From contig JAWPOF010000007.1 in NCBI GenBank assembly GCA_033345275.1, forward strand, positions 100,636 through 164,635: DNA of 64,000 nucleotides, written 5' to 3'. A program made the position numbers and the translations under genes. The notes beneath the pieces were generated by a model. It did not search any database. It saw nothing but the letters and a program-made list of their open reading frames with translations, and had not been told where the DNA came from. This document shows, piece by piece, positions 27,057 to 59,565 of the stretch (position 1 is the stretch's first letter; each line of letters opens with the position of its first letter). This DNA is from Alphaproteobacteria bacterium (GTDB lineage: Bacteria > Pseudomonadota > Alphaproteobacteria > Rs-D84).

Positions 27057-27072
27057 AACAAAGGAGAAAAAA

Positions 27073-27512: not shown

Positions 27513-27521
27513 ATTCACGGA

Positions 27522-29106: not shown

Positions 29107-29122
29107 AGAGTGTGGTATTGGG

Positions 29123-29509: not shown

Positions 29510-29519
29510 AGCCTACACC

Positions 29520-30302: not shown

Positions 30303-30380
30303 AACAGACTCCTTTTTGGGTAGTCTAGAACATCATGTCAGAATGTCAATTTGGAATAAGATGTTGCGACCAAAAATGAC

Positions 30381-31391: not shown

Positions 31392-31534
31392 AATCAACCT
31401 CTTTGTTAAGAATAATTGTATCAGAAAAAACAATATAAAACAACCTAACTACGACACATTTGGTCGTATAATCTAGTTGTTGAATTGAACTTTGTTGTAG
31501 ATGTAATAAGATAAATGTAATCCAGGAGGCAAGT

Positions 31535-32548: not shown

Positions 32549-32567
32549 ATTTATTTGTACAATTTAG

Positions 32568-33275: not shown

Positions 33276-33277
33276 AT

Positions 33278-33817: not shown

Positions 33818-33983
33818 ATAAAAAGCGTAAAAAATAGCAATTAAAAATAATCATATGCGACAGATTTGGACTTAGATAAATATACCGACTGGAAAGCCGA
33901 AAAATTATTGCTACGATAAAATCAAACAATAGGATTGCAAGCCCAAAATATAGTGGTAAGATTCCTAAAAAAGGAAAGAGAAG

Positions 33984-35447: not shown

Positions 35448-35458
35448 GAGATAACAAC

Positions 35459-37894: not shown

Positions 37895-37917
37895 AACGCA
37901 GAACAAAGGAGGTAGCA

Positions 37918-39018: not shown

Positions 39019-39183
39019 GTGCGCTTTTGTTACGCTATTGAAAAAAGAGGATTAAATTACTATAATAATCTAAAGTGAGGATATAAAATGGTGCAATCTA
39101 TTGAAATTAATCCGAATTTATCTGGTTTTTTGTCATCGTTTAGAGAAAAAAGTTGGAATTAGTATGTGATAAATCGTACTATG

Positions 39184-39197
39184 TTCATACTCCGCCA
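39184..39197 (+). repeat. att-core-like copy of the tRNA-Ser 3' end (ttcatactccgcca)
   Basis: 13 of 14 nt match cttcatctccgcca at 22391-22404; embedded in a ~100-bp element also present at 49255-49400. Confidence 0.5.
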
Positions 39198-39295
39198 CAA
39201 AAATCAAACGCCCGATATGGGCGTTTTATTTTTGTGCCGAAATAAGGGGCTCCCCCAACAAGCCACGATAGTGGTGGGGGGCAAAGAGTAGGTCT

Positions 39296-44126: not shown

Positions 44127-45456
44127 TGATGTAAAGCAAGAATTACATAGGCTGTTTTTGTCCGTCCCTGCTACGAACCTACATAATGTCGGAATAGAAA
44201 TAGAGCTATCCATTGTAAGCAAAGAAGAAGACTATTCCGGCGATCATAGTCATGACCTGCAAAATTTTATAATAAATCATCTAAACTTTATACAGCTCTT
44301 TCCTGATAAACTAATATTTAGACACAAGACAGAAAAAGATATTATTTCCTTTGAATACAGTATCAATACCCTAGAGTTTTCAATGGAAAAATCCGATAGT
44401 TTAATGAAGATCAAAAAACGTTTTTTGGGTTATTATGATGCACTGCAAAATTTCATGAAAACTAAAAATCTTATGTTGTGCGGTTGTGGTTTGCATCCGC
44501 ATTGGCAAAAAATAAATACGCGAGCATTGGAATTGCCACATTATCAATTGACAGAGTATTATTTAGCACAGGGGGCTAAGGAATCGTATTTGCATAATCA
44601 TGATGATTTTTGTGCGTATTCATGTGCAGTACAAACACACATTGATATAAATCATAGTATTCCAGAACTTTTAAACATATATTCATTTTTAGGTTGTATC
44701 AAAGGATTCCTGTTTTCAAATTCTGTTGACCTGACCCAAACATGTGACTTCCAAGGAATGGCATGCGTCAGGGACTATTTATGGTGGCACAGCATGTTTG
44801 CGTTTTGTTCAGAGAATGTTGGCTATTATCACGATATAAAAACAAATGATGATATTATCGACAATATGTTGCAACGCAGTATGTATTATGTTTGTCGCGA
44901 TAATGAATACCTATATATTGGACCGTACAAACTTGCTGAATACTTTTCTAAAGACAGCGTGCTTGCATATAATATATTTACAGGCAATAAAACAACATTG
45001 TCGCCACAGATTACAGATTTACAGTATTTTCGTTCATACAAGGCAATAGAACTAACAAAGCGTCATACCATAGAAATCCGTGATGATTGTCAACAGCCTG
45101 TTTATGATACCTTTGGTCCATGTGCATTTAATCTTGGTATATCAGAGGCTCTGCCCGAAGCATACTCTTTGATAGACAAACTTTGTAAAGATATGAGAAT
45201 AGATTTCTATAATTTTATAAACAATCGTAGGTTGTCAACGTCTCTTAACCCAATGCTAAGTGAGTTTGTCCTAGATAAGTGGCGTATTTATTGCAGAGAA
45301 TTTGTCTTGATTGCACGTAAGGGGTTGCAGAAAAGAAATCTGGGTGAAGAAGAATTATTAGATAGTGTTTTGAAACGACACGACATCTTAGAAAACCCTG
45401 CAAAAGTCGCGTACAAAAAATGGCACTGTGATAATGTGTTACTTGGTATAGATTAA
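44113..45456 (+). CDS. carboxylate-amine ligase, glutamate-cysteine ligase family 2 (GCS2/YbdK-like)
   Basis: VGIEIELSIV N-terminal motif; about 450 aa; overlaps the rSAM stop. Confidence 0.5.
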   Translation: MLSDNDVKQELHRLFLSVPATNLHNVGIEIELSIVSKEEDYSGDHSHDLQNFIINHLNFIQLFPDKLIFRHKTEKDIISFEYSINTLEFSMEKSDSLMKIKKRFLGYYDALQNFMKTKNLMLCGCGLHPHWQKINTRALELPHYQLTEYYLAQGAKESYLHNHDDFCAYSCAVQTHIDINHSIPELLNIYSFLGCIKGFLFSNSVDLTQTCDFQGMACVRDYLWWHSMFAFCSENVGYYHDIKTNDDIIDNMLQRSMYYVCRDNEYLYIGPYKLAEYFSKDSVLAYNIFTGNKTTLSPQITDLQYFRSYKAIELTKRHTIEIRDDCQQPVYDTFGPCAFNLGISEALPEAYSLIDKLCKDMRIDFYNFINNRRLSTSLNPMLSEFVLDKWRIYCREFVLIARKGLQKRNLGEEELLDSVLKRHDILENPAKVAYKKWHCDNVLLGID

Positions 45457-45475
45457 CAGAAAAAAGGAAAATCTT

Positions 45476-46411
45476 ATGAAAAAAGTTGGTTTATGGTTTT
45501 ATCGTAATGATGGCGGCCAAAAGGTGTTAACAAAACTGATCGCAGAATTACAAAACAGGGGTTATGAGGTAATTTCTGATTTTGATATGAGAAAATGCTA
45601 TATTCTTAATGGTAAAGTGTATACTGCAGATGGGTATAATCTTTCTGCGTTAGATGCTTTTTATCACATGAATGCCGATGAACAAAACCAATTTCAAAAT
45701 GATATTTTAAATGTTTTAAGCAAATCAAACGTAAAGGTATTTAATCATTATGATGCTTTTAGTGTTGCCAAAGACAAAATGCTTGCAAATAGCCTTTTGC
45801 GTGATTCTGGTCTATCTGTTCCACCATCATTATTTATTGGGGCTGAGTTCGATAAAAATATAATAAAGCAAGTATTTAGCGACTGGAAAAAGGTTGTTTT
45901 GAAACCACGCCGAAATCATGGAGGAAAGGGTATATTAATGTTTGATGATTATGAAAAATTTGACGACTTTTGTCAGGCGACTAAGGGATTCTATAATGAT
46001 TATTATTTAGAAAAGTTCATAGAATTTGGAACTCATGATTATCGTATAGAGGTATTTGATGGCAAGGTCATAGGTGGGTATAGCCGTCAAAGAACCCATG
46101 CCTTTAAAACAAATATTAGTTCTGGTGGGCAGCATATTTATATTCCTGTGAACAAAGAGTGCGAAGATATTGCATTAAAAGCTGCCGCCTCTATTGGTAT
46201 AACTACGACTATTGTAGATATGATAAAATCTGTTGAAGATAACCAATATTATATTCTAGAAGTCAATCCGATTATGGGGATTTTTTTAGAGTCTGCAATT
46301 TCTTCGGGGGAAAGGTTCCCAGCACCAGACATCATAGAACAACAACTTTGCTCGGATGGAACCAAAATAAAGTGTATTGCAGATTATTTTGATAAAATTT
46401 TGTTTAATTAA
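45476..46411 (+). CDS. ATP-grasp ligase, RimK/glutathione-synthetase-like
   Basis: KPRRNHGGKGI, HDYRIEVFDGKVIGGYSRQ, ILEVNP ATP-grasp motifs. Confidence 0.65.
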   Translation: MKKVGLWFYRNDGGQKVLTKLIAELQNRGYEVISDFDMRKCYILNGKVYTADGYNLSALDAFYHMNADEQNQFQNDILNVLSKSNVKVFNHYDAFSVAKDKMLANSLLRDSGLSVPPSLFIGAEFDKNIIKQVFSDWKKVVLKPRRNHGGKGILMFDDYEKFDDFCQATKGFYNDYYLEKFIEFGTHDYRIEVFDGKVIGGYSRQRTHAFKTNISSGGQHIYIPVNKECEDIALKAAASIGITTTIVDMIKSVEDNQYYILEVNPIMGIFLESAISSGERFPAPDIIEQQLCSDGTKIKCIADYFDKILFN

Positions 46412-46427
46412 AACAAGGAGGGAACAT

Positions 46428-47177
46428 ATGTCATTAGATAGCCCGATATTTATCGCAGTGTCATCTTGTAATGCTAATGTGGACATAAATTTTTCAAGGT
46501 CGCAGCGTCTTTCTTATGTGTCCGATGCTTATGTTAGATTAATTTCGGATTATGGGGCAGTACCATTGATTATTCCATCCAACATTGGGATTGAACACAT
46601 TGATGGGGTTGCTTCTATTTGTCATGGATTGCTGTTGTTGGGCGGTCCTGATATTTCTTCAGATTTATCATGTGCCGTTCCTGGGGGTGCAATAGATGCC
46701 ATTAATAAATCAGATAGCAAGCGAGATGATTTTGAGCTGGCGTTGTATAAATCGTTTGTTTCTTACAATAAGCCTGTTTTAGGAATTTGTCGTGGTATGC
46801 AAATCATAAATGTCGCCCATGGCGGAACGTTGGTTCAAAATCTTGACACGTCGCTAAATCATTATATAGAAAGCGATGGTTGGATAAACTACCACGAAAT
46901 AAAAATAGTTACAAAGACAAAGGTATATGAACTAATGAATTGTGATAAGTATGTGACCTCATCCATTCATCATCAAGGCATAGATAAGTTAGGTGATAAA
47001 TTGAAGGTGGCTGCATATTCTGAAGATGGGGTGATCGAAATGATAGAATCAGAAGATAAAAACCGCTTTGTCATCGGAATACAGGGACACCCAGAAAAAA
47101 CAAGAACAAATTTGCCAAAATACGAAACCATATTTAGTGAATTTATTAAAACCGCAGGAAAACATAATGAACAATAG
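46428..47177 (+). CDS. class I glutamine-amidotransferase-like gamma-glutamyl hydrolase (peptidase C26, PuuD-like)
   Basis: GICRGMQ nucleophile elbow, HHQ and QGHPE; start at the internal Met with aaggaggg RBS. Confidence 0.65.
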   Translation: MSLDSPIFIAVSSCNANVDINFSRSQRLSYVSDAYVRLISDYGAVPLIIPSNIGIEHIDGVASICHGLLLLGGPDISSDLSCAVPGGAIDAINKSDSKRDDFELALYKSFVSYNKPVLGICRGMQIINVAHGGTLVQNLDTSLNHYIESDGWINYHEIKIVTKTKVYELMNCDKYVTSSIHHQGIDKLGDKLKVAAYSEDGVIEMIESEDKNRFVIGIQGHPEKTRTNLPKYETIFSEFIKTAGKHNEQ

Positions 47178-48351
47178 TTATCTCGATCTAAAATTATATA
47201 AAGATTTATATTCAAATACGGTGGCACAAAAAAATCAAATGGGTATACCTTATTTGTTTAAGCAAGATATCGTACGCGGCTTTCCGCTTAATTTTATGAC
47301 CCAACGCCTTAAACAGTTAATAGCCGAAGATAAAATAGAATATACAACAACATCTGGTACGACATCGGATAGAATGCAAATCATGCGAAACAAGGGCTGG
47401 TGGCAAAATGAATATATCAGAACTTATAAAAACCATCCGCTTTTGCATAAAGTTATACAAGACAAATTGCCAAAGGCAATTTTGACGACAGCCATTTGTT
47501 CAAATACAGTGTGTTATTTAAATACGCCGTCTTATGAAGAACGCATAATAAATGGTACTTTATATCTTAATTACCAACATAATCCATGGGATTGGACCAA
47601 AGAAGATATTTTACAGATTATAGACGAAATGAAACGTTTTAATGTCTATTATTTAGATGTTGATCCTATTTATTTTTATATATTCTTGTATAAAATGAAA
47701 CAATACAATATTACTAAACCATTGCCACAACCCAAAGTGATGACACTTAGTTATGAATATTCTCCAATCAGTATAACATCATACATAAAGCAGACCATGT
47801 CTTGTCCGGTACTTGATTTATACGGCACAACAGAGTTTGGCTATGTTTTTTTGACAAACCAAGATGGCGAGTTGGCGTTATGCCCTGAATTGTTGGATGT
47901 GGATTTTATCCAAATTGAAAACGCAGATAATCTTTACGAATTGGTAATTTCGTCATTTAAGAACGAGCATATGCCACTTATAAATTATCGTATGGGCGAC
48001 ATAGTTGAAATGACTAAAAATCAATATGATAAATTCAAAGAACATGGGATTATCACTAGAATAGCAGGAAGAACAAAAAATCTTATAAAAAACAATGGTA
48101 AAACTATTGTAGTATCAACAATAGATGACATTATTAGCAAATATAAAACAATTGCTTTTTATCAACTGTCTATAATTAGCAATAAGCGTTACAATATAAA
48201 ATTGTTGTTACATCCGGACGCTTATTTATCTGTTGTTGAACTAAATAGTTTGAATCAAGAATTACAGGATTTATTGTGTGGAGATGTTGATTGCTCTATA
48301 GGTGAAACGATAGCTCCAGAAATGTCAGGGAAATTTGCTCTTATAAAATAA
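47167..48351 (+). CDS. adenylate-forming enzyme, PaaK/CapK/F390-synthetase-like
   Basis: TSGTTSDR adenylation core motif; overlaps the upstream stop by 11 nt. Confidence 0.55.
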   Translation: MNNSYLDLKLYKDLYSNTVAQKNQMGIPYLFKQDIVRGFPLNFMTQRLKQLIAEDKIEYTTTSGTTSDRMQIMRNKGWWQNEYIRTYKNHPLLHKVIQDKLPKAILTTAICSNTVCYLNTPSYEERIINGTLYLNYQHNPWDWTKEDILQIIDEMKRFNVYYLDVDPIYFYIFLYKMKQYNITKPLPQPKVMTLSYEYSPISITSYIKQTMSCPVLDLYGTTEFGYVFLTNQDGELALCPELLDVDFIQIENADNLYELVISSFKNEHMPLINYRMGDIVEMTKNQYDKFKEHGIITRIAGRTKNLIKNNGKTIVVSTIDDIISKYKTIAFYQLSIISNKRYNIKLLLHPDAYLSVVELNSLNQELQDLLCGDVDCSIGETIAPEMSGKFALIK

Positions 48352-48413
48352 ATGCAAAAATCCCTGTAAATTCCCTGTAAAAGCGGAATTTGTATGTGGT
48401 TCTTCGTATTGTA

Positions 48414-48427
48414 TTCATACTCCGCCA
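48414..48427 (+). repeat. att-core-like copy of the tRNA-Ser 3' end (ttcatactccgcca)
   Basis: Identical to the 39184 copy. Confidence 0.45.
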
Positions 48428-48575
48428 GTAATATTGAACATCCCGTGGTAATCCCACGGGTTGTTCTTTTTCGCCCCGTTTCCGGCAGTTTTTATGGGTG
48501 ACATTACCTGCGTATATCACCGTCCGCGCCAAATCCGCCCAACACCACTGCAACTATATAACTTGCCCAAAAATG

Positions 48576-49172
48576 TTATGCCCGTTTTGGGTAGTTTTTG
48601 TGTTCTTTCAAATAATCTGAATATAGTTTTGACCATGTCATTAAATCATAAAATTTTTTGTTCATATAAACTGCCTGTCTAGAAACGCCATCTAAAATAA
48701 AACCAGTTTGTTCAGCTAGCTTTGCAGAATCTTTATTTTCTACAATATTTACACGCATGATTTTATTAACCTTTAGTTTATTAAATGCGATTTCTTCTAT
48801 AGCGCGGTATGATTCTGCGGCAAAACCATGACCACGAGCATTTGATAGCAACCATACGGTGTTTAATTTTAATGATAGGTTCTCTTTATAAAAAGATATT
48901 TTTCGGACGCCGATGAACTGACTATTATGAAATATATAAAATATACATGCATCGTTTTTTTCGCTTTCTGCATGATATTGCATCATTTTCAAGGTATCAG
49001 AGACAGATGTTGGCAGTATTTTTGGGGTTTTCATCAAAGGTTCATATTTATAATCTTGTGGATTTTCATTTTTTAACGCAGCAAATATGATTTTTGCATT
49101 TTGTATATTAGGTTCTAAATGTTTTAACACTAATCTTGCAGAGCGTAAATCTTTTGAAAAATATTTTATCAT
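48576..49172 (-). CDS. GNAT N-acetyltransferase, RimJ/RimL-like
   Basis: 198 aa; NARGHGFAAE acetyl-CoA motif. Confidence 0.65.
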   Translation of the reverse strand: MIKYFSKDLRSARLVLKHLEPNIQNAKIIFAALKNENPQDYKYEPLMKTPKILPTSVSDTLKMMQYHAESEKNDACIFYIFHNSQFIGVRKISFYKENLSLKLNTVWLLSNARGHGFAAESYRAIEEIAFNKLKVNKIMRVNIVENKDSAKLAEQTGFILDGVSRQAVYMNKKFYDLMTWSKLYSDYLKEHKNYPKRA

Positions 49173-49460
49173 GAAAGCACCTTTAGTTCATTTGATTATT
49201 ATAAAAAAACTTTATTTGGGCAATATATTTGTATACAATCCATACACAACAGATATCTAATACCGTCATTTATTACGATTCCGCCACAAAAATAAAACGC
49301 CCCATTGTTGGGCGTTTTATTTTTGTGCCGAAATCGGGGTTTGAACCCGGTAAAGCCACGATAGTGGCGTGGGTTCGACAATGAGTAGGTTTTGCAAACA
49401 TAGTGTAGCAAAACCGTCATGAATGCCCCACAGCCCCGCCATCCGCGGGGCGAGGGAATA

Positions 49461-49671: not shown

Positions 49672-50046
49672 TTATAACTGATTTTCTTTTGCAAGTTTAT
49701 ATATATCGTTTATATTAATCTGTTGTTTGCCCGACAGGATCTTATTTACAATTTCTGGGTTCATGTACGCCACCTCTAAACATCGGTACACATGGCGCAG
49801 GGCGACATGTTCGGCGCGGCCAATTGAATCTACATCACCACCCTGTTCATACATCTCGCGATACCGCCACGCGGCGACGAACGCCTTCAATATCAGGTGG
49901 TTGTTTTCTGTAATGCTAAGCGTGCCGTTACGTCCACCACCAAATCTGGTGTTGGCATATCGGCGCAGCACAACTGGTCGCATTGAATATAGTACCACAA
50001 CGAACGGTTTTGTCGTTTGAACGGGTGGGGCGAATATTTTGCCCAT
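49672..50046 (-). pseudogene. serine recombinase remnant (C-terminal ~100 aa only)
   Basis: Homologous to the C-terminus of 23912-25501 (VVLRRYANTRF.GGRNGTLSITENNHLILKAF...). The catalytic N-terminus is removed by a deletion joined at the aaccggtcg microhomology. Confidence 0.7.
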
Positions 50047-50117
50047 AACTTTGCCCGTTCTGAATACTGCAATGTCTTTAATACGTCCATGGTTTTGGGT
50101 AATTCCCTTTTTCTCAT
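49893..50117 (-). pseudogene. DUF2924-like remnant (first ~50 aa homologous, then the deletion junction)
   Basis: MRKRELPKTMDVLK.L.YSERAKLWAKYSP.PFKRQNRSLWYYIQ shared with 25491-25928, then divergent. Confidence 0.55.
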
Positions 50118-50311
50118 TTTTGTGCCTCTATTTCAACGTTAAACCAGGTCTGCACAGCCGGCACTAAGCCCATCTGTGCGATGTCGTTTATAAACTCTTC
50201 GGCCTCGGCCTGAATTTCGTATTTCCGGAACGCATCAAGACACTGTAAAACCAAGCGTGTGTTGTCAGTCGGTTGAGTGATTTTAATAGTAATTTCAGGA
50301 TGTTTTGGCAT
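50114..50311 (-). CDS. small conserved protein, second copy
   Basis: Paralogue of 25925-26128. Confidence 0.35.
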   Translation of the reverse strand: MPKHPEITIKITQPTDNTRLVLQCLDAFRKYEIQAEAEEFINDIAQMGLVPAVQTWFNVEIEAQK

Positions 50312-50409
50312 GTTTAACTCCTTTGCTTAACATCACGCAATTACTGCTTACAAAGTGGTATAAATCAAGTTATTTCATTGAAATATTTGTTGTTTAATTT
50401 TATGTTGTT

Positions 50410-50799
50410 ATGAAAGTAACTGCTGCGATTTTTAAGCGTGGCGACAAAGTCTTGTTGATGCGACGGGCGGCCGACCAGCCGTTGGCGGGCGAATGGGAAT
50501 ATCCCGGTGGTAAGTTTGAAGACGGCGAGGACGGCCCAACATGCCTGCATCGGGAACTGTTTGAAGAACTTGGTATTGATGCGCAAATTGGCAACCTGAT
50601 TACAATTGCAAAACACACAACGGATTCAGGCAAGGTTATCGAACTGCACGCATATGAAATCGCATCCTATACCGGCGAAATTCAACTGCGCGTCCATGAT
50701 GATATGCACTGGGTGCTAGTCCCAGACCTGTCAGCACACCCTCAATTACCAGCAGACCTAATTGTGTCACAGACATTATATTCCGTTGGAACATATTGA
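50410..50799 (+). CDS. NUDIX hydrolase, MutT-like (second copy)
   Basis: About 85% identical to 26246-26632; Nudix box present. Confidence 0.7.
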   Translation: MKVTAAIFKRGDKVLLMRRAADQPLAGEWEYPGGKFEDGEDGPTCLHRELFEELGIDAQIGNLITIAKHTTDSGKVIELHAYEIASYTGEIQLRVHDDMHWVLVPDLSAHPQLPADLIVSQTLYSVGTY

Positions 50800-50843
50800 T
50801 ATTTCTGAAAAAGCGGTTTAAAATATCGCAAAGGGGGCATCTT

Positions 50844-51404
50844 ATGAAAGAGATTGAAATCTTGGTTCAGGTTTTCGCGGACGAAGCGGACGTTCTGCGT
50901 AAGTTGTCTAAATTTGAATTCCTGGGCAATAAACGAACGGTTGATACATACTATTATGACCCGTTGCGTCCCGAATTACAGCTGGACAGCAACGGTCGCC
51001 TGTATGCATGCTGTCGCACACGTCAAAAAGACGGGGTGAATTATATCACATATAAGAATGATCATTTTGATGGTGATACATGGCTTTATTCTGACGAAGC
51101 GGAAACAACCGTAGCAGACATGTCCACAATGTGCGAAATTATGCATGCGCTGGGACTGCGTGAATTGATAAAAATTGATAATCTGAAACGAACATATCGT
51201 GCCGGCGATTACACAATTGAATTTGAAACTGTGGCAGATCTGGGGCTGTTTTTAGAAGTGGAATATTGCACCCCTGATGACATAGATGTGACACGCATAA
51301 AATCACAGATTCAATCCTTTATTGATAATTTGGGATTTGCTGTGTCGCCTGAATTGAATGCCGGTAAACCAGAACTGATGTTGCGCAAGAAACAACAGGG
51401 GTGA
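50844..51404 (+). CDS. CYTH-domain protein (class IV adenylyl cyclase / triphosphate tunnel metalloenzyme)
   Basis: N-terminal EIEIL, C-terminal LFLEVEY acidic beta-strands. Confidence 0.5.
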   Translation: MKEIEILVQVFADEADVLRKLSKFEFLGNKRTVDTYYYDPLRPELQLDSNGRLYACCRTRQKDGVNYITYKNDHFDGDTWLYSDEAETTVADMSTMCEIMHALGLRELIKIDNLKRTYRAGDYTIEFETVADLGLFLEVEYCTPDDIDVTRIKSQIQSFIDNLGFAVSPELNAGKPELMLRKKQQG

Positions 51405-51407
51405 ACA

Positions 51408-51917
51408 ATGCTGATTCTTAATATCAATGGACCGATAAATTCTGGCAAATCAACAGTATCTAAACTGTTGGTGCAAATGTTGCCGCGCGCAGTTTTTATA
51501 GAAGTTGATGACCTGTTATCAGATGATGAAGAGAAAAAATTAGGTTTGACCATGCAGGCCGGCTGGGGCGAACGCCTGAACCGATTGGATAGAATTATCG
51601 TCGACCAAAAAAATCAACGCCAATACGAAACAATTATTTTTGCGTATCCAATGACAGAAAATTTGTATCGGCGCTGGTCGGCACATATTGATAAGAACAC
51701 AGGTTTTATTGCAATTACACTGGCGCCCAGTTTGGAAAAGTGTTTGACCAATCGTGGAACACGTACATTGACCAACTGGGAAATTGGGCGCATACGTGAA
51801 ATGTATAATGAAAATTATCACAGGCCGATAAATTCAGATTTGATAATAAACAATGACGGACAGACACCGCACCAGACTGCCCAACAAATTGCAGATTATA
51901 TTACAAAACAAAGATAG
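51408..51917 (+). CDS. P-loop kinase-like protein (AAA_33 / nucleotide kinase fold)
   Basis: NGPINSGKST Walker A, 169 aa. Confidence 0.5.
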   Translation: MLILNINGPINSGKSTVSKLLVQMLPRAVFIEVDDLLSDDEEKKLGLTMQAGWGERLNRLDRIIVDQKNQRQYETIIFAYPMTENLYRRWSAHIDKNTGFIAITLAPSLEKCLTNRGTRTLTNWEIGRIREMYNENYHRPINSDLIINNDGQTPHQTAQQIADYITKQR

Positions 51918-51929
51918 GAGGAAACCAAA

Positions 51930-52403
51930 ATGTCAGAACGTGCAATGTTTAAGGGTGTAATAAACCTGATTATAAAAAAAGACGACAAAGTCTTGTTATT
52001 CTTTCGCAATGATGGATTTTTTAACTATGATGGTGGTTGGTGGGTTCTGCCGGCAGGACACATAGAGCATGGAGAAACCGCACGTGCCGCCGCCATACGA
52101 GAGGCCAAAGAAGAACTGGATATCGACATTGCGCCCGACGACATCAAATGCGTACACGTCACCAGCAATCTGGCCAGTCGCACAGAATCTTTTGATTTCT
52201 TTTTCGAGGTGTCAAAATACACCGGCACAATTCGCAACTGCGAAGGGGACAAGTGTGCCGATATGCAATATTTCACATTGGACGAAGTCACCAAATTGAA
52301 GAACGTTGTTTCAACAACCCGTATTTCATTGGCGGGATTGGCGCGTGGCGAAATATATTCCGAATGTAAATCGTATCGCAGTGAATCAAAGGATACAAAA
52401 TGA
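51930..52403 (+). CDS. NUDIX hydrolase
   Basis: GHIEHGETARAAAIREAKEELDI Nudix box. Confidence 0.65.
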   Translation: MSERAMFKGVINLIIKKDDKVLLFFRNDGFFNYDGGWWVLPAGHIEHGETARAAAIREAKEELDIDIAPDDIKCVHVTSNLASRTESFDFFFEVSKYTGTIRNCEGDKCADMQYFTLDEVTKLKNVVSTTRISLAGLARGEIYSECKSYRSESKDTK

Positions 52404-53170
52404 ATAAAATAATCAAATCATTTCAAGAAAATACACATTGTTCTGATTTGTTGCATGAAATATACGGTATTTCATCTGCCGAACATTTTGATTGCGTATT
52501 TATTGCACCATCTTGGCCAATTGATAAAGTCTTTGATAGTGCCACAACAGATATTACTGAAATATATTCAGACAGATTCTCAAAATCGCATCGTATAAAG
52601 CATAATGGCAAATCATACTTATATATTCAATTACGGGTTGGTGCGCCAAATATAGTTGACTTTTGTTTGTCCTGTCATTCGGCCAACTGTGCAAAATTTG
52701 TATTTGTCGGCTCGGTGGGTTCACTGGTTCCGGAACTAGAAATCGGGGATGTTATTATTCCGACATGTTCTATATCTGGCAATGGCGCAACATTGTACCT
52801 GGATGATAAATTAAGCCCAGAAAAGATGTTTGAACGCACATATTCATCACCAGAATTAAATTCAGAATTATTGAAAGTTTGCACAGGTGTTGCACTGACG
52901 ACCAAAAACGCAATGCCGATATCGGTTGATAGTGTAGCATGCGAATATGCACACTTGGACGAGTTTCGACAAATGGGCGCAACCCTGATAGAAATGGAAA
53001 CGGCAACCTTTTTCAAGGCCATGCAGACTATAGGCAAACCTGCATCGGCACTGTTGGTCGTGGCTGATAATTCAGCCGTTGGCCAACATCTGGTCGGCCA
53101 AGGCGCAGACTTGCGTGCAAAATACCATGCGGTTCGTTCACGAATAAAGGATGTTTTATTAAATCTGTAA
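52400..53170 (+). CDS. nucleoside phosphorylase-family protein (PNP_UDP_1; MTA/AMP-nucleosidase-like)
   Basis: FVGSVGSL...GDVIIP and ATLIEMETATF motifs. Confidence 0.5.
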   Translation: MNKIIKSFQENTHCSDLLHEIYGISSAEHFDCVFIAPSWPIDKVFDSATTDITEIYSDRFSKSHRIKHNGKSYLYIQLRVGAPNIVDFCLSCHSANCAKFVFVGSVGSLVPELEIGDVIIPTCSISGNGATLYLDDKLSPEKMFERTYSSPELNSELLKVCTGVALTTKNAMPISVDSVACEYAHLDEFRQMGATLIEMETATFFKAMQTIGKPASALLVVADNSAVGQHLVGQGADLRAKYHAVRSRIKDVLLNL

Positions 53171-53179
53171 GGAACAGTC

Positions 53180-53680
53180 ATGAAAATTTTTGTAACAAAA
53201 GAATACTTTGATAAGTCCCAACGGAAAGTTCGAGAGTTGCAAGAACGACTGGCCCAGATACGCAGCGACAAAACAGCCGCATACACAGAAGACACAAACA
53301 CATGGCACGATAATTTTGCATATGAACATTTGACACGGGAAGAAAAGCAGACAGAAAAATTGGTCGCTGATTTATTGGCAGACCTGGACAATATGCTTGT
53401 CGTACCAAGGAATAAGCCGGCAACCTCAGAAACAGTCGGTTTGTATTGCTGGGTATGCGTGACCCAAGAAAACGAAACCACTGGCGCAGAAACAGAATGC
53501 AGGCTGGGGATTGTGCCATTGGGGGCAGAAGAGATACCACAACAAAAGTACGCATATAATATGCCATTGGTTCAACCCTTGGTCGGATTATCTGTTGGGG
53601 ACGAAATAACGGTGCGTGTTCCATCAGGCGAAATACATATGACAATTCAAACAATTGAACCCCTACAACCCCAGGAATAA
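53180..53680 (+). CDS. GreA/GreB-like protein (N-terminal coiled coil + C-terminal FKBP-like domain)
   Basis: Architecture plus LVGLSVGDEITVRVPSGE resembling the GreA C-terminal domain. Confidence 0.35.
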   Translation: MKIFVTKEYFDKSQRKVRELQERLAQIRSDKTAAYTEDTNTWHDNFAYEHLTREEKQTEKLVADLLADLDNMLVVPRNKPATSETVGLYCWVCVTQENETTGAETECRLGIVPLGAEEIPQQKYAYNMPLVQPLVGLSVGDEITVRVPSGEIHMTIQTIEPLQPQE

Positions 53681-53682
53681 AG

Positions 53683-54465
53683 ATGATAAAAGATATCAGT
53701 TATTCAGCATATATTTTGCCGGTGCGTGATGGACAGGTTGCGCTATTAAAATACGGCGAAAATGGATACGGACCAATTGGCGGGCGACTGGATGATGGCG
53801 AAGATTTTTTGACTGCGCTGCGGCGTGAACTGACCGAAGAACTGGGCGAATCTACATCTGCGCTGGCAGATAGTGCAATTGAAATTCCGGTGCCATATGC
53901 GTTTCGTCACCCAACCCCCGAACGGGCTCAAAAACGTGGCGCATTGGGCGAAGAACATCACTTTTTTATCGTTCACGTCCTAGATGATATGGAATTGAAT
54001 TTTTGTGAAAATCGCCCCGAGGAAATATCGGTTGCATGGGTTGCCCCCGACGACTTATTAAACCCAAAAATCACACCATTTGATGATATGCGTGAATTTT
54101 ATGCAACGCATCTCTTGCCAAACTTGGACTGTAAATTTTCAATGAGTTTGCGCCCTGGATATTATGAAATGGTGCGTTCTGGTGAAAAGGATATCGAACT
54201 GCGTCTGTATGATGAAAAACGTCGCAGAATGCACAACGGTGACACTATTCTGATATATGATGCGCAAAACCACAATGATTATATTCGTGCAAAGATCGTT
54301 CGCCTGCATATTGCGCACAGTTTTGCAGACCTGGCGACAAAAATCAGCATGCCCCGAACCGGTTTCGCATCGCTAAATGCACTAATGTCCGCAATATCAA
54401 AATTCTATGATGCCGAAATGGAATCCAAATACGGCATTGTGGGGATAGAGTTAGAGGTTATATAA
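53683..54465 (+). CDS. NUDIX hydrolase fused to a C-terminal ASCH/PUA-like domain
   Basis: GGRLDDGEDFLTALRRELTEELG Nudix box; C-terminal ~110 aa beta-barrel-like region. Confidence 0.5.
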   Translation: MIKDISYSAYILPVRDGQVALLKYGENGYGPIGGRLDDGEDFLTALRRELTEELGESTSALADSAIEIPVPYAFRHPTPERAQKRGALGEEHHFFIVHVLDDMELNFCENRPEEISVAWVAPDDLLNPKITPFDDMREFYATHLLPNLDCKFSMSLRPGYYEMVRSGEKDIELRLYDEKRRRMHNGDTILIYDAQNHNDYIRAKIVRLHIAHSFADLATKISMPRTGFASLNALMSAISKFYDAEMESKYGIVGIELEVI

Positions 54466-54796
54466 CCACAAACTCGTTTAATTCCAGCAGATCTGTTTCC
54501 TGAAAATCGGGAAAGTATTTGTTAAAAAAATCAATGTGGACCGTACGCCAGTATGCCAGGGACAGGTCGCCTTCGCCCTCTATTTTTGCCCATGCGTCAT
54601 CAATGTCACAAAACCGACACTTTCGAACGGCTGTAATTTGAATTCGTATTGTTTCGCCACGACTGTTATAGATTTCCTGAACGTCACCAATTTTTGCCAT
54701 TGGTTCTTCGTCAGAATTCCGGCCACAGGTTCCACGTTTTCGACCTATGCGCACTAGTTCAAACAATTCATCATTATCAAAAGTCCAACGGTTCAT
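54458..54796 (-). CDS. ASCH-domain protein
   Basis: 112 aa; ASCH-like fold assignment from memory. Confidence 0.4.
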   Translation of the reverse strand: MNRWTFDNDELFELVRIGRKRGTCGRNSDEEPMAKIGDVQEIYNSRGETIRIQITAVRKCRFCDIDDAWAKIEGEGDLSLAYWRTVHIDFFNKYFPDFQETDLLELNEFVVI

Positions 54797-55526
54797 TATT
54801 TTTACTCAGCGTTATATCCTTGTCAACCAACCAAATCTTGCCATCGTTTTCGATACAAAATTCAACATTATCATTAGAACATCTGATAAAGCTGACATCT
54901 GTTAGGCCATCTTCTCTTAAATTATCCTGTAATAGATAGAATTTACCGTAATCTTTGGCAACCTGTAGCAAATCTGATTTTTTATACACTTCATCACCAG
55001 AAACAAGTTCTTCCGGATAATTCTTGTCTGATGTGTTATTATGTGGATAAATTGAAATGCCATCCAGATTTAGACCTGGCTCAATATGAAAATTTGGAAA
55101 CTCATCACTACAAGGCGTGATAATGATATATTTAGACATCAGCATAGCGCCCGCACTAAAACCCAACATTACCCCATTGAACTTTTTCAATTCGTCCATA
55201 ATCCCAAGCCCATCACAAAGCTCTCTTTGCTTAAAGGGATCGCCCCCCATCAGCATGACAAAGCTCGCACTTTTTATCATATCCTTTGCTTCTGCGGGGG
55301 ACAGTTCGGGCGTGATGATATTTACAGATTCAAATTCTATTCCCACGTTTTTGAAATGCTTTGTGAAATTAGGAATATGTTTTGCACGTGCTTTTTCTAT
55401 TTTTTCCGCACCAGCAGGAATATAGACTATGCTCTTTGTGTCTTCTAGTTCGGCTTTGAACATCTTGCCAAGTCTGTGTCCAAAAATATTATCAAGGTCG
55501 AAACCGCTGCAATAATATCTTGTCAT
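54777..55526 (-). CDS. peptidase S51 family (dipeptidase E / cyanophycinase-like)
   Basis: MLMGGDP...GFSAGAM nucleophile-serine motif. Confidence 0.5.
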   Translation of the reverse strand: MTRYYCSGFDLDNIFGHRLGKMFKAELEDTKSIVYIPAGAEKIEKARAKHIPNFTKHFKNVGIEFESVNIITPELSPAEAKDMIKSASFVMLMGGDPFKQRELCDGLGIMDELKKFNGVMLGFSAGAMLMSKYIIITPCSDEFPNFHIEPGLNLDGISIYPHNNTSDKNYPEELVSGDEVYKKSDLLQVAKDYGKFYLLQDNLREDGLTDVSFIRCSNDNVEFCIENDGKIWLVDKDITLSKNNEPLDF

Positions 55527-55541
55527 TTTTAAGTGTTCCTT

Positions 55542-55994
55542 CTATTTGAATCTTTCTATTATCCAATTTTTAATAACAACGGGATATAATTTTGTGCCTG
55601 GCAAATCAGAAATTTTCACTTTTTCAAAGCCAATCAAATCCTCTTTGCTGCTTATGTCATCTGCATTGATGTCCACACGTTTAACAACTTCAATCCCGTA
55701 CAGGAAATTTCCATTGGAATCATAGCCCTGATTTTCAATAGCCAATAAGATGCCATCATGAATAGTGATGTCAGATTCTGCAACGCCCATTTCTTCATTC
55801 AGTTCACGTGTAATGCACTGATTCAATGTTTCGCCAATTTCCAATCCGCCACCAGGCAAGAAATAATAACCGCCAGCCAAGTGCTTGCATAAAACGATGC
55901 TGTCGCCTTGCACAATTAAACATCTGCTTGTTGTTTGTGTTCTCATGACTACATTCCCCCTTGATTTTATCTTATAATCGTGTGCTTGAACCAC
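55542..55994 (-). CDS. NUDIX hydrolase
   Basis: PGGGLEIGETLNQCITRELNEEMGV Nudix box. Confidence 0.65.
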   Translation of the reverse strand: MVQAHDYKIKSRGNVVMRTQTTSRCLIVQGDSIVLCKHLAGGYYFLPGGGLEIGETLNQCITRELNEEMGVAESDITIHDGILLAIENQGYDSNGNFLYGIEVVKRVDINADDISSKEDLIGFEKVKISDLPGTKLYPVVIKNWIIERFK

Positions 55995-56323
55995 TGTTCT
56001 TGGAAAGCGGTTTTTTGTTCAATATATTCGTTTGTTGGATTTTGTCCGTCTGGCACAACAATCAGTTTGTCATCGTTGTCATTTGTACGATGGATAATCG
56101 CAATGCATTTGCCGGTAAAGGTTGCCAACGGCGTATCGATACCCAATACGTATGCGTCTAATTCTTCGCCATCACCCGATATGGTGTTTGGTATAAATCC
56201 ATAATTCACTTCGTATGTAAAACCGTGTTTTGGATGTTTGCTGCCCAGCGGTCTGTCCATTTGTACATTGACGATTTTACCCAGAAAATCACGTGTATTT
56301 ACGATGTTGGAATTTGTGGACAT
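55967..56323 (-). CDS. small inorganic-pyrophosphatase-like protein
   Basis: GDGEELDAYVLG resembles the PPase DGDPLDVLVL motif; 118 aa. Confidence 0.45.
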   Translation of the reverse strand: MSTNSNIVNTRDFLGKIVNVQMDRPLGSKHPKHGFTYEVNYGFIPNTISGDGEELDAYVLGIDTPLATFTGKCIAIIHRTNDNDDKLIVVPDGQNPTNEYIEQKTAFQEQWFKHTIIR

Positions 56324-56446
56324 TTTATATCCTTATGGCTGGTATTATAGAATCAGTATATATTACAATATTTATGTTGTCAAAGTTTATGTATGCTGAT
56401 TTTTTCACAGCATACAATCCTTTTTGACATCTGGTGAATTCGGTTT

Positions 56447-56640
56447 ATGCTGATTCCTGAAATGGCGGAAAGGTTTTATCTTTGCATTGATTTAAAGAGT
56501 TTCTTTGCCTCGGTCGAAGCGGTTGAGCGTGGGCTGGACCCGTTTACAACAAACCTGGTCGTGGCGGACTCTTCACGGGGGCGGGCATTGCACGACGACT
56601 GGAAAAATACGGTGTCTATGCCCTGTATGGTCTGACTGGT
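56447..56640 (+). pseudogene. Y-family polymerase remnant (N-terminal 40 aa + internal deletion)
   Basis: MAERFYLCIDLKSFFASVEAVERGLDPFTTNLVVAD identical in register to 27522; then jumps to sequence matching 28108-28170 and diverges. Confidence 0.6.
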
Positions 56641-56783: not shown

Positions 56784-58787
56784 TTAATTTATGTTAGTAC
56801 TACAAATTGTGGGTGAATTTGGATTCACTTTAGCAGTGTCTGATGTGTAATAGGTTTGTCCGTTATAGTTGACGTGTATTGCGTTTGTGAATTCACAAGA
56901 TTCTTGTTGATGTGTTAGGCTTGCGTAACATGTCATGTTGTTTACTTTGACCACTATGGCGGGGGTGGTTTGTTTGTCGTTGTATAAAGGTATGGACAGA
57001 CCGCTGTTGGTTTTTATATATCGTACACCTGCCAAACAGAATTGACCGCATCGGTTATCGTGTGTTTGATTGAACCCGTCGTTGCATGTCCATGGACAGT
57101 TGTCTGGGGCGGTGCCATTGCCAGTATATGTAGCGTTATTTGGTTTTGTGCAGGCGTTGCATTGATTTGTGCCACCTGGACTGTATGTGCCACTGGCGCA
57201 TTTGGTACATGCGGGGGAGGCTGTATTATTGCCAGATGCCCCATATTTTGGGTCGCAGTTCACAGTGTACTGGCATGATGGATATGATGTGCCGTTGTAA
57301 TATTGTTTTGTTTCGTTTGGTGTGGCGGTACCGTTATCAATGGTTAGGCGACATTCTGTATAGCAATCTGTGCTTTGGGCGCGTGTGTTGTCGGAACCAC
57401 TATAGCCCGCTGGGCATTCGTTGACTGTTTGTGCGGTTCCATATGTTAATACGCCGCCTTCGAAGTAATAACCGTTTTCAACAGGTTTACATACACCTAT
57501 CCATACCGCGTCCATCGAATTTGTTGTTTCTAGTCCGTCATAATAATAACCAGGATTACAAGAAGACCCAGAAAATCCGCCGCAATATCGAGTGTAGATA
57601 CCATCGCTGTTTGCGTAACACCCAAAATCAATTAAACCCTCGGGGCGTTGTTCGCGAAAACGCGCCATACACCCTTCGATTGAAATGCGACCTTCAAATG
57701 AACCGACTGACATTGTTGCGGCAGCGTGGGTGTTTTTTGGGTTGGGGCATTGTTTACAGGATGTTTGGCCTGATTGCCCCTGGTAATAACCTTGGTAGCA
57801 TTGTGTTTGTTTTGTGGCGCCAGAGGTGCTTACAAAATATCCAGGCTGGGCCGTGGTGCATGTTGTTTTAACATGGGCGCTGCTGGACATATAGGTGCCT
57901 GGGGAACATGCTGTACAAGAGCCGGCAGTGTTGGCGTATGTGTTCCCGGATGAATACGCGGCCCCCTGTTTACAATTTTTTACCATACACAGGTTTGAGA
58001 CTGTATTTGCAGTCCATTTTGGGGTTTGCCATGCATTGATGTATTTGTTGCTGTTGGCGCACGCAGAGCAAGTGGCAGAAGAATGACCTGGTTTTGTCGT
58101 CGTTGTGCCGGCAGCACATGCTGTGCATGTGGTATTGCCCGTGCCTGTTGCGTATGATCCGATAGCGCATGCGACACAACTTGTGCTGGATACAGAACCA
58201 GGGTCGGGGTTGTATGTACCAGCTGCGCATGGTGTACATGTGGCGTTTGCTTTGGTGCCTTTGCCTGATTTATATGTGCCCGCAGCGCACGCTTGCCAAA
58301 TCGCATAAACGGTTGTTGCTTGTGTTACTGTAATTGTTTCTGTGCCAGTTTGGGCGTTTGGATCTGTGTTCCACCCCATAAATATGTGACCTGCGCGGTA
58401 AAAGTTTGTTGTGTTACCAGATTGTAATGTACACGTGATCCCTGGGGTGCATTGTGTGCTGGTCGGTGCGGTATCCTCTTGGGTTGCGCCATTAGTTGAA
58501 TAATTATATGTGACTGTGAATGTATTTATCTTGGGGCAGGTTGTGCTGCCTGGGCATGAATAGCCAGCAGGACACGATTTGCACGAATTGTTAATTGAAG
58601 GCGATGTTATTGTCTGGCCCTCGTATTGTGTTCCGTCACAGTCAGATAAATAGAAATCTTTATTGCATGATGTGTATTTAATGTATGCGCTACAACTATA
58701 TCCTGCTGAATATGCAGGATAAGTGAATAGGGTTAAAAATAATATCCCCCCAACAAGAAGGAACGAACGTTTTGTTTGTTTGCGCAA
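56784..58787 (-). CDS. secreted cysteine-rich repeat protein (CxxCxAGTY ephrin-receptor/GCC2_GCC3-like repeats + Listeria-Bacteroides-type repeat)
   Basis: Signal peptide; >15 copies of C..C.AG(T/S)Y; FMGWNTDPNAQTG...YAIW motif. Confidence 0.55.
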   Translation of the reverse strand: MRKQTKRSFLLVGGILFLTLFTYPAYSAGYSCSAYIKYTSCNKDFYLSDCDGTQYEGQTITSPSINNSCKSCPAGYSCPGSTTCPKINTFTVTYNYSTNGATQEDTAPTSTQCTPGITCTLQSGNTTNFYRAGHIFMGWNTDPNAQTGTETITVTQATTVYAIWQACAAGTYKSGKGTKANATCTPCAAGTYNPDPGSVSSTSCVACAIGSYATGTGNTTCTACAAGTTTTKPGHSSATCSACANSNKYINAWQTPKWTANTVSNLCMVKNCKQGAAYSSGNTYANTAGSCTACSPGTYMSSSAHVKTTCTTAQPGYFVSTSGATKQTQCYQGYYQGQSGQTSCKQCPNPKNTHAAATMSVGSFEGRISIEGCMARFREQRPEGLIDFGCYANSDGIYTRYCGGFSGSSCNPGYYYDGLETTNSMDAVWIGVCKPVENGYYFEGGVLTYGTAQTVNECPAGYSGSDNTRAQSTDCYTECRLTIDNGTATPNETKQYYNGTSYPSCQYTVNCDPKYGASGNNTASPACTKCASGTYSPGGTNQCNACTKPNNATYTGNGTAPDNCPWTCNDGFNQTHDNRCGQFCLAGVRYIKTNSGLSIPLYNDKQTTPAIVVKVNNMTCYASLTHQQESCEFTNAIHVNYNGQTYYTSDTAKVNPNSPTICSTNIN

Positions 58788-59439: not shown

Positions 59440-59565
59440 AATGTTGTTGTCAGATCTAATTAAACCTACAAAATTAAAACCTGGAGATACTGTTGCTGTA
59501 ATCTCTCCTTCATGGGCGGGGGCTTCTGTATATCCAGAACGTTATTTGGCAGGCAAGAAACAGTA
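59440..59565 (+). pseudogene. LD-carboxypeptidase (LdcA/MccF, S66) N-terminal fragment
   Basis: MLLSDLIKPTKLKPGDTVAVISPSWAGAS then stop; matches the S66 N-terminal PGD.I..IAPS motif. Confidence 0.4.

Follow-up and report, generated by a model that had tools for sequence, protein, structure and literature searches.

A NUDIX-rich gene block between the remnants of an integrative element in a gut alphaproteobacterium: chromosomal residence and a possible role in nucleotide salvage

What are four NUDIX hydrolases and a group of other small enzymes doing between the remnants of an integrative element? The eleven genes in question lie at 50410-56323 of a 64,000-nt stretch of DNA (the window; GCA_033345275.1, contig JAWPOF010000007.1; coordinates are window positions unless another locus is named). 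Before this analysis, a reading of the letters (the original prediction) had taken them for a nucleotide-processing set carried on a mobile element, acting in counter-defense, in nucleotide-pool sanitation, or in defense itself. Both the dense, NUDIX-rich gene set and the degraded element were borne out. That the former is carried on the latter was correct in part: the set does lie between element remnants, and its first gene, NUDIX1, is element backbone, but the remaining block (50844-56323) appears to be chromosomal and lineage-wide rather than portable cargo of the element. We tentatively explain this block as a set of chromosomal genes for the salvage and house-cleaning of nucleotides that the host scavenges and that are in part modified, accompanied by peptidases, a reading to which we give somewhat less than an even chance.

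Open reading frame (ORF) listing and translation, together with Pfam and NCBIfam scans of all eleven genes, confirmed that each of the genes named originally is an ORF with the domains ascribed to it. The plus strand encodes NUDIX1 (50410-50799; PF00293, 62.7 bits), a CYTH triphosphate-tunnel enzyme (50844-51404, the ORF reaching upstream to a TTG at 50796; PF01928, 54.4 bits; TIGR00318, 71.5 versus a cutoff of 57.95), a small-molecule P-loop kinase-like protein (51408-51917; weak AAA_18, AAA_33 and SKI matches), the hydrolase NUDIX2 (51930-52403; PF00293, 64.2 bits), a PNP/UDP-family protein of the NP-I fold (PNP-like; 52400-53170; PF01048 (PNP_UDP_1), 69.5 bits), a GreA-like protein consisting of a coiled coil and a GreA/GreB C-terminal domain (53180-53680; PF01272, 39.8 bits), and a NUDIX-ASCH fusion (53683-54465; PF00293, 46.1 bits, and PF04266, 39.3 bits). 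The minus strand encodes a stand-alone ASCH protein (54458-54796; PF04266, 59.5 bits), an S51-family peptidase (dipeptidase E/cyanophycinase-like; 54777-55526; PF03575, 45.4 bits), NUDIX4 (55542-55994; PF00293, 39.5 bits), for which gene callers place the start at 55946 (134 aa, as also called in the homologous loci L001 and L057), and a 118-aa protein resembling a miniature family-I pyrophosphatase (mini-PPase; 55967-56323; PF00719, 41.6 bits). The Nudix box (GX5EX7REUXEEXGU) was matched as a regular expression in NUDIX1, NUDIX2, NUDIX-ASCH and NUDIX4, with the last glycine replaced by aspartate in NUDIX2, and PF00293 scored above its cutoff in all four, which places them in the NUDIX superfamily.

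The genes form two convergent, tightly packed sets in which they overlap or are separated by 2-16 nt, and these sets are likely two convergent operons (plus strand, 50844-54465; minus strand, 56323-54458). Promoter-like sites were found upstream of the CYTH gene (50796-50824) and upstream of the pyrophosphatase gene (56383-56355). In a placement simulation restricted to the window, the clustering was mildly significant (p about 0.05); the stronger argument for it comes from conservation and gene fusions (see below). Rfam found no riboswitch within 48-60 kb that might have served as a clue to a ligand. Opposite the PNP-like and GreA-like genes lies a minus-strand ORF of 268 aa (52675-53481), longer than either real gene; it was rejected as a gene, being an artifact of longest-ORF calling whose apparent conservation is a by-product of the sense genes.

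The host is Candidatus Enterousia, a gut alphaproteobacterium. Genomes of Enterousia (order Rs-D84) are reported to be mostly <1 Mb and to lack nucleotide, amino-acid and lipid pathways (PMC12306168). Searching species-representative genomes with a profile of the PNP-like protein yielded 50 loci (L-numbers denote homologous loci or contigs from other genomes); the close ones among them come from metagenome-assembled genomes (MAGs) of animal and human guts that are named Candidatus Enterousia or Alphaproteobacteria bacterium, and the protein is present in about 36 alphaproteobacterial species representatives. For NUDIX-ASCH, >167 homologous protein clusters (52-93% identity) were found in Rs-D84-type MAGs, and the gene keeps a fixed anchor (SDR, LigA, OMP, PBP) in L065 and L067. 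NUDIX2, the PNP-like protein, NUDIX-ASCH, ASCH, S51, NUDIX4 and the mini-PPase are chromosomally encoded in many Enterousia-type genomes, and block genes are repeatedly found in one another's company, their order varying, usually next to TyrRS, ArgRS or AsxRS genes. GC and GC3 of the block resemble those of core genes; those of NUDIX1 and the Y-family polymerase of the element are higher. In distant genomes, the PNP-like gene occupies a conserved site (TatD, holB, PBP5, MiaB, rpoZ, tRNA-Ser, (S66), PNP, TyrRS), and its product is 65 and 63% identical in L013 and L049, respectively, compared with 60-77% for TatD, holB, PBP5, MiaB and rpoZ. Between tRNA-Ser and PNP, a serine-recombinase element is present in L013 and L002, only a remnant in L012, and none in L049; recombinase debris and PNP are neighbors because the element sometimes integrates at that site. 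No relatives of the PNP-like protein were found in IMG/VR viral contigs or PLSDB plasmids and none of NUDIX-ASCH in INPHARED phages, and PHROGs returned matches only to generic NUDIX, ASCH or kinase families; a phage or plasmid origin of the cluster was rejected on these grounds. All this points to vertical inheritance of a block with host-like composition.

The closest comparison is offered by L057, which is from the same species (its ArgRS is 99% identical to that of the window at the amino acid level). There the order is TyrRS, NUDIX2, PNP, GreA, NUDIX-ASCH, ASCH, S51, NUDIX4, PPase, a NUDIX1 3′ remnant with CYTH, a polymerase stub, and ArgRS. DNA identity to the window is 96.1% in the block and 96.0% in the ArgRS flank, with the segment containing NUDIX1 and CYTH and the main block in swapped relative order. 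A 33-nt repeat, corresponding to the polymerase promoter, flanks the CYTH segment in L057 and has a copy at 56411-56443 of the window, and CYTH follows a NUDIX1 3′ remnant in L007 as well as in L057. The difference between the two loci thus appears to stem from rearrangement, not transfer. Compared with L057, the window also carries an inserted gene on the minus strand (56784-58787) for a 667-aa, cysteine-rich secreted or surface protein with Ephrin-receptor-like repeats; because L057 lacks this gene, its polymerase stub directly adjoining the region upstream of ArgRS, it is a strain-variable insertion. Upstream of ArgRS in the window, a 35-codon remnant of an S66 peptidase N-terminus (59459-59563; 57% identity) is apparently a further trace of past rearrangement at the locus.

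The element whose debris brackets the block has an apparently intact copy of about 15 kb in the window (22314-39296), beside tRNA-Ser(gga) (22314-22404). It comprises a serine recombinase (23912-25501), DUF2924 (25491-25928), a NUDIX gene (26246-26632), two hypothetical genes (26685-27435), a Y-family polymerase (27522-28784) followed by a YolD-like gene and, beyond the polymerase, an ADP-ribosylglycohydrolase (ARH; 29520-30302) followed by a WYL regulator and genes for two FtsK-like ATPases. A DUF2779/Cas4-like nuclease and an FtsW-like protein are encoded on it as well, and a repeat (39191-39296; copy at 49280-49393) may mark its far end. Self-comparison of the window (blastn and protein) revealed the decayed copy, the remnants of which are collinear with 23912-28784 of the intact one. 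On the left, 49469-49609 matches 22615-22755, the sequence just outside the recombinase end and downstream of tRNA-Ser (87% nucleotide identity over 141 nt); 49672-49982 on the minus strand (remnant listed to 50046) encodes residues 427-529 of a large serine recombinase (67% amino acid identity to the C-terminus of 23912-25501) and also matches the C-terminus of a 541-aa recombinase in L002; 49968-50117, likewise minus (listed from 49893), holds about the first 50 codons of DUF2924 (88% amino acid identity to residues 1-50); and 49968-50779, spanning the DUF2924 start and NUDIX, matches 25779-26615 (84% identity). On the right, both on the plus strand, 56411-56585 matches 27471-27645 (93% identity; polymerase promoter and first 42 codons, with residues 1-42 also matched at 93% by tblastn) and 56578-56636 matches 28104-28162 (83% identity), an internal polymerase fragment. 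Because only recombinase residues 427-529, 50 DUF2924 codons and polymerase stubs survive, leaving no intact recombinase, the local copy is a dead remnant.

Within it, the 5.6-kb CYTH-to-PPase block fills an interval that measures 0.86 kb in the intact copy and holds the two hypothetical genes. The original prediction had placed an ARH at this equivalent position of the sister element and derived from it a link to ADP-ribose (ADPR) and NAD metabolism; since the ARH lies beyond the polymerase, that argument fails. NUDIX1, in contrast to the block, has the GC content of element genes (0.49), its product is 88% identical to that of the NUDIX gene of the intact element (26246-26632), and NUDIX1-type genes adjoin a Y-family polymerase or serine recombinase in L066 and L068. 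It alone among the cluster genes is element backbone, outside the conserved cluster, and it is predicted to be the NTP-sanitizing partner of the element's Y-family polymerase.

Do the genes of the block belong together? Multi-gene versions of it were found in at least 13 loci (L007-L011, L016, L030, L034, L057, L058, L061, L066 and L067), with recurring arrangements: NUDIX2 before PNP or NUDIX-ASCH, GreA before NUDIX-ASCH, PNP before ASCH, and the set ASCH-peptidase-NUDIX-PPase. Stand-alone ASCH adjoins PNP even in the distant relatives L005 and L022-24. NUDIX and PNP genes are neighbors in Faecousia too, within GNAT, APH, nitroreductase and MFS arrays, and clostridial PNP-like homologs lie in arrays of small enzymes described below. 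In relatives, a peptidase is invariably encoded between ASCH and NUDIX4, although the families that fill this slot are non-homologous (S51, S66, or an S33 prolyl-aminopeptidase-like protein together with a HAD phosphatase; L058, 2814-4461; L066, 10792-11817; L011, 12405-14157). Fusions join the same families. NUDIX/PPase fusions occur in both orders (L007, 13570-14412; L042, 14813-15550): a 281-aa NUDIX-PPase protein is encoded in L007, L009 and L067, with the mini-PPase of the window corresponding to its C-terminal half (the window gene matches the L007 fusion gene minus the 507 nt encoding the NUDIX half), and the reverse fusion, PPase-NUDIX, is found in an Oscillospiraceae genome. The small kinase family (197 representatives at E-values up to 0.001) includes kinase-ASCH, kinase-GNAT, NUDIX-kinase, NUDIX-kinase-GNAT and double-kinase proteins. 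These patterns suggest that at least most genes of the block belong together functionally.

What the individual proteins might do was approached through profile, PDB and structure-model comparisons. NUDIX1 has NudG as its best NCBIfam match (NF007834, 97.9 versus a cutoff of 156; TIGR00586, 66.3 versus 97.9) and the CTP pyrophosphohydrolase 2rrk as its best PDB match (end-to-end alignment, 77 bits); it can be regarded as NudG/MutT-like, short of an equivalog. Classing every NUDIX domain by HMM, as originally proposed, went no further than this: NUDIX2, NUDIX4 and the NUDIX domain of NUDIX-ASCH yielded generic matches and no specific subfamily in NCBIfam and PDB sequence searches, and none of the three approached the NCBIfam models for ADPR pyrophosphatase, NudC or CoA pyrophosphatase. 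None of the four NUDIX proteins qualifies as an ADPRase or NudC, with NF001299 (NAD+ diphosphatase) at 23-31 bits versus a cutoff of 158, NudE at 16-18 versus 169, and a PDB ADPRase match of only 21.6 bits.

ASCH proteins are, by experiment, N4-acetylcytidine (ac4C) amidohydrolases acting in nucleoside salvage (PMC6972931; bioRxiv 10.64898/2026.02.27.708502, 10.64898/2026.08.01.741249), and their octapeptide motif classes have been described (bioRxiv 10.64898/2026.02.27.708502). By fold and octapeptide (GxKxx[E/T]xR), the ASCH domains of the window group with these amidohydrolases at the level of sequence (PF04266, 39.3 in the fusion and 59.5 in the stand-alone protein, both exceeding the Pfam cutoff). 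The ASCH half of NUDIX-ASCH matches PH0355 (2z0t) and carries the octapeptide GEKDIELR, of the GKER type; the stand-alone protein carries GRKRGTCG, without the terminal Arg, and its best PDB match is 3s9x, labeled "ASCH domain". Both octapeptides belong to motif classes whose members were shown to deacetylate ac4C, either free as the nucleoside or in tRNA. The structure 3s9x is presumably that of ZmASCH from Z. mobilis, which was reported to be inactive on ac4C and active as an RNase. We know of no characterized example of a NUDIX-ASCH fusion.

The AlphaFold2 (AF2) model of the PNP-like protein (pLDDT 89.8) shows a generic hexameric NP-I fold, for which Foldseek against the PDB returned only metabolic PNP, UP, MTAP and MTAN structures (TM about 0.75). 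The EME motif and the catalytic Asp are kept. E. coli PNP binds phosphate via R24, R87 and S90; the position of R87 is occupied by an invariant Phe102, and the region of R24 does not align, which means that the fold of a nucleoside phosphorylase is present and its phosphate-binding site is not. The loss of the phosphate-binding Arg suggests a hydrolysis, or a substrate that supplies the phosphate itself (e.g., AMP for AMP nucleosidase). Rather than a phosphorylase, the protein is probably an N-glycosidase acting on nucleosides or nucleotides. A link to queuosine was set aside, as it would have rested on one clostridial homolog that adjoins TGT and QueA.

The CYTH protein exceeds the cutoff of TIGR00318, the CyaB (class IV adenylate cyclase) model. 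Its N-terminal motif, however, reads EIEIL instead of ExExK, the Lys also being missing in L057 and L007; its best PDB match is the Saci_0718 triphosphate tunnel metalloenzyme (7ns8), with solved class IV cyclases at about 22 bits. The mini-PPase reaches 31 versus a cutoff of 200 in NCBIfam, yet it exceeds the PF00719 cutoff and its 118 residues align to the solved PPase core (NYGFIP..DG-E-LD, DDK); a full-length family I PPase is longer (about 170 aa). The family of such proteins, about 115 aa in length, comprises at least 8000 protein clusters, which their sources name "inorganic diphosphatase", and to our knowledge has no characterized member. The S51 peptidase scores above the PF03575 cutoff and contains a GFSAG motif resembling a nucleophile elbow; PDB sequence searches with it and with the kinase gave zero matches. 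The GreA-like protein falls outside GreA/GreB proper (37.6 versus 139 with full-length GreA models; 28-38 bits versus cutoffs of 139-171 over the GreA/GreB range), although its C-terminal domain passes the Pfam cutoff, and seems to be an accessory paralog, present or absent among close relatives.

In the salvage and house-cleaning scheme that we infer from sequence and models, the nucleosides and nucleotides scavenged by the host would include modified ones from other organisms' RNA, which the small P-loop kinase would phosphorylate. NUDIX2, NUDIX4 and the NUDIX half of NUDIX-ASCH would cut unwanted or non-canonical (d)NTPs or NDP-X to monophosphates and pyrophosphate; the mini-PPase would remove the pyrophosphate, and CYTH tri- or polyphosphate. 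The ASCH domains would deacylate, or at least recognize, N4-acylated cytidine, and the PNP-like protein would split the base from ribose or ribose phosphate, supplying base salvage and the pentose-phosphate route. Small peptides would be scavenged in parallel with the help of the neighboring peptidase, which is of family S51 in the window and of S66 or S33 in relatives. The general idea of NUDIX house-cleaning is old and all families involved are already known; we know of no earlier description of the conserved gene cluster in Enterousia, of NUDIX-ASCH and NUDIX-PPase fusions that belong to one linked set, or of a PNP-fold protein in which the phosphate-binding Arg is missing.

Several observations weigh against this scheme. 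The GreA-like protein has no place in it, the CYTH protein lacks the Lys of its ExExK motif, and NUDIX2, NUDIX4 and the NUDIX domain of NUDIX-ASCH match only generic models. The content is not constant among close relatives: GreA, kinase and CYTH are each present in some and missing from others, and one peptidase replaces another, as would also be expected of genes with an accessory or conflict function. Further away, the genes lie scattered (e.g., L036, L065, L019-L021), and the data therefore do not demand a single pathway. Finally, in some genomes block genes are found among restriction-modification, GmrSD, DpnI or Abi genes.

The enzymes might instead make up a chemical-defense island, inactivating nucleoside, nucleotide or peptidyl-nucleotide antimetabolites or antibiotics (e.g., aminoacyl-adenylate mimics aimed at the neighboring aminoacyl-tRNA synthetases (aaRSs)) by phosphorylation, pyrophosphate cleavage, deacylation, and cleavage of glycosidic and peptide bonds. 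We consider this unlikely. The AF2 model of the kinase (pLDDT 96.8) lies closest in Foldseek to shikimate kinase, APS kinase, chloramphenicol phosphotransferase and TmrD-like kinases, that is, partly to resistance enzymes (the last confer resistance to tunicamycin), at TM 0.6-0.7 and with no clear nearest relative; a specificity could not be taken from the fold, as these neighbors are mixed small-molecule kinases despite the excellent model. Kinase-GNAT fusions resemble bifunctional resistance enzymes, and RimL-like GNATs are encoded nearby. Genes for clostridial PNP-like homologs (about 34% identity) are part of arrays of small-enzyme genes that all run in one direction, such as aaRS, NUDIX, PNP, four GNATs, nitroreductase and MFS transporter in L041, or GNAT, PNP, GNAT, Metallophos, AlkZ, PPase-NUDIX, APH and GNAT in L042. 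The Enterousia block, however, contains neither exporter nor regulator, and no curated resistance model was reached at its cutoff. S66 is the family of MccF, but the S66 protein of relatives has just a weak LdcA match in NCBIfam, and a MccF-like identity was therefore rejected. That aaRS genes are recurrent neighbors fits mimics of their intermediates, but could be no more than a result of how densely genes are packed in a 0.9-Mb genome.

It is distinctly unlikely, in our judgment, that the block has no common pathway at all and is a recombination-prone plasticity zone beside an integration hotspot, in which unrelated small accessory hydrolase genes have piled up. Such a zone would account for the differing order and content among close relatives (CYTH changes place, the peptidase slot is filled by another family, and a surface-protein gene has been inserted), for the dispersal of the genes in distant relatives, and for the element remnants, restriction-modification, DpnI, GmrSD and prophage genes, and serine recombinases nearby in several genomes. 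It would leave unexplained why the same families have been joined in independent fusions (NUDIX-ASCH, NUDIX and PPase in either order, kinase with NUDIX or ASCH), why NUDIX-PNP and PNP-ASCH adjacency recurs across two phyla, and why overlapping or 2-nt-spaced genes suggest operons.

The GreA-like protein, left over in the salvage scheme, would find a place in an RNA-directed module, in which it and NUDIX-ASCH, with CYTH and the kinase, would act on RNA 5′ ends or tRNA, for instance by removing non-canonical caps or triphosphates or by erasing ac4C, perhaps at RNA polymerase. The genes for GreA-like and NUDIX-ASCH are only 2 nt apart in the window, and the pair recurs in seven other loci (L007, L008, L011, L030, L034, L057 and L066); conversely, GreA-like is absent where NUDIX-ASCH is kept in L009, L016, L061, L065, L067 and L068. 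The best NCBIfam match of the NUDIX half of NUDIX-ASCH is RppH, but it is weak (28 bits) and far below the cutoff of 118, and neither a NudC signature nor a NudC model match was found. CYTH enzymes include RNA triphosphatases, ASCH proteins deacetylate ac4C in tRNA, and ZmASCH is the reported RNase mentioned above; the PNP-like protein and the PPase, on the other hand, point to free nucleotides, and we hold the module to be improbable.

The roles in phage conflict that the original prediction had put forward, be it counter-defense against signaling nucleotides, the rebuilding of NAD+, or a nucleotide-depleting or -sanitizing defense, fared worse still and appear highly improbable. Element remnants do bracket the cluster, and PADLOC-DB v2 gave one strong hit, NUDIX1 to PDC-S07 (111.9 bits), but PDC-S07 is listed as an untested candidate (PMC11514479), and the hit is confined to the predicted polymerase partner of the element; the other genes gave no hit in PADLOC-DB v2 or scored <20 bits (PNP-like, 13.6), apart from generic NUDIX similarity to PDC-S07, and no gene of the set matched a component of a validated anti-phage system. 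PNP-domain ATP nucleosidases are known immune effectors (bioRxiv 10.1101/2023.01.24.525353), but the PNP-like protein was rejected as one of them, given the solely metabolic NP-I enzymes returned by Foldseek. For the rebuilding of NAD+, no ADPR or NAD model was reached, and neither NAMPT, nicotinamide ADPR-transferase, NMNAT nor ADPR-PP synthetase domains were found by Pfam and NCBIfam in the eleven genes, which also include no PRPP-synthetase-like gene and no sensor domain. The lack of relatives in IMG/VR, INPHARED and PLSDB, the generic PHROGs matches, the apparently vertical inheritance, the host-like composition and the misplaced ARH all argue in the same direction. The original prediction was to fall if related loci proved to be chromosomal core genes with a defined metabolic annotation: they are chromosomal and lineage-wide, but a defined annotation is lacking. 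NUDIX-ASCH does lie between type I restriction-modification, GmrSD and methyltransferase genes in L065 and near DpnI in L066, and these neighbors, like the variable content, would fit a new host immunity in which the PUA-like ASCH domain recognizes a modified cytosine or phage-type base and the NUDIX domain, perhaps with the PNP-like protein and the other NUDIX proteins, destroys the modified (d)NTP and starves phages with hypermodified DNA, a possibility we likewise rate as very remote. In L065 (1-14302) and L061 (1-7302), block genes are near type I restriction-modification, GmrSD, two N6/N4 methyltransferases and YjiT/YjiV-like proteins, and the same zones, which collect defense and prophage genes, contain a terminase/DUF5681/ParB-methyltransferase trio.

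Two further stretches of the window stand out by their composition. At 42022-49172, a low-GC island (0.30-0.37 versus 0.42-0.46 in core genes) encodes a NifS-like enzyme, a radical SAM/SPASM protein, two large hypotheticals, a RimK-type ATP-grasp ligase, a C26 gamma-glutamyl peptidase and a RimL-like GNAT; it is probably foreign and may be a peptide-modification cluster. A second low-GC stretch (8000-17000; 0.32-0.36) encodes an ABC-F ATPase, a GNAT, a DUF3419/methyltransferase protein and a HAD hydrolase.

If the salvage and house-cleaning reading is correct, the block shows what a nucleotide-auxotrophic gut symbiont with a genome of <1 Mb keeps in order to live on the nucleotides of others, and that the host devotes >1% of its genes to enzymes of the NUDIX, ASCH, nucleosidase and pyrophosphatase kinds. 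Enzyme candidates for modified nucleotides such as N4-acetylcytidine, the handling of which by ASCH proteins is just now being worked out, are the NUDIX-ASCH and NUDIX-PPase fusions, the 115-aa mini-PPase family with its thousands of members, and the PNP-fold protein without the Arg. For genome scans, the locus is a caution: a gene set is not cargo, or a conflict system, just because debris of a mobile element lies next to it.

How does the block compare with known systems? With phage NAD+ reconstitution, anti-CBASS and anti-Thoeris systems it shares NUDIX domains (one NAD+ reconstitution pathway uses an NMNAT-Nudix protein) and nothing more, being without NAMPT, NMNAT and ADPR-PP synthetase domains and without phage homologs. 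The PNP-domain ATP nucleosidases Cap17 of CBASS and DtcC of Detocs are of the same broad fold family as the PNP-like protein, which differs from them in that it has no fused or adjacent sensor or signaling partner, scores 13.6 bits in PADLOC, and is encoded lineage-wide, in many genomes with no second block gene within 10 kb. With AMP nucleosidase and MTA nucleosidase, hydrolytic members of the NP-I fold, it has in common the PF01048 fold, the EME motif, the catalytic Asp and the absence of the phosphorylases' phosphate-binding Arg, and its best NCBIfam matches are named AMP nucleosidase and MTA/SAH nucleosidase. Its scores, however, are 27-37 bits versus cutoffs of 169-307, its closest solved relative by profile is Sulfolobus MTA phosphorylase, and it has a conserved 50-residue N-terminal extension of its own. 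Y-family polymerase (UvrX/YolD-like) cassettes are matched by the intact element, with its serine recombinase, DUF2924, NUDIX, Y-family polymerase and YolD-like gene, and the cassette recurs in decayed form as NUDIX1 and the stubs at 56411-56636, a copy that differs in holding 5.6 kb of host block between NUDIX and polymerase and in its destroyed recombinase. As for ASCH proteins of the YqfB/EOLA1 type, the fused ASCH domain is of their GKER type and the G-R-K-R-G-T of the stand-alone protein corresponds to the Lys-x-x-Thr spacing of YqfB, whereas the stand-alone protein as a whole is closest to 3s9x. Finally, the house-cleaning NUDIX NTP pyrophosphohydrolases (E. coli NudG/MutT) are resembled in the intact Nudix box of all four proteins and in the proposed chemistry, NTP to NMP and PPi; all scores remain below the equivalog cutoffs, and several such proteins are clustered here and partly fused to ASCH or PPase.

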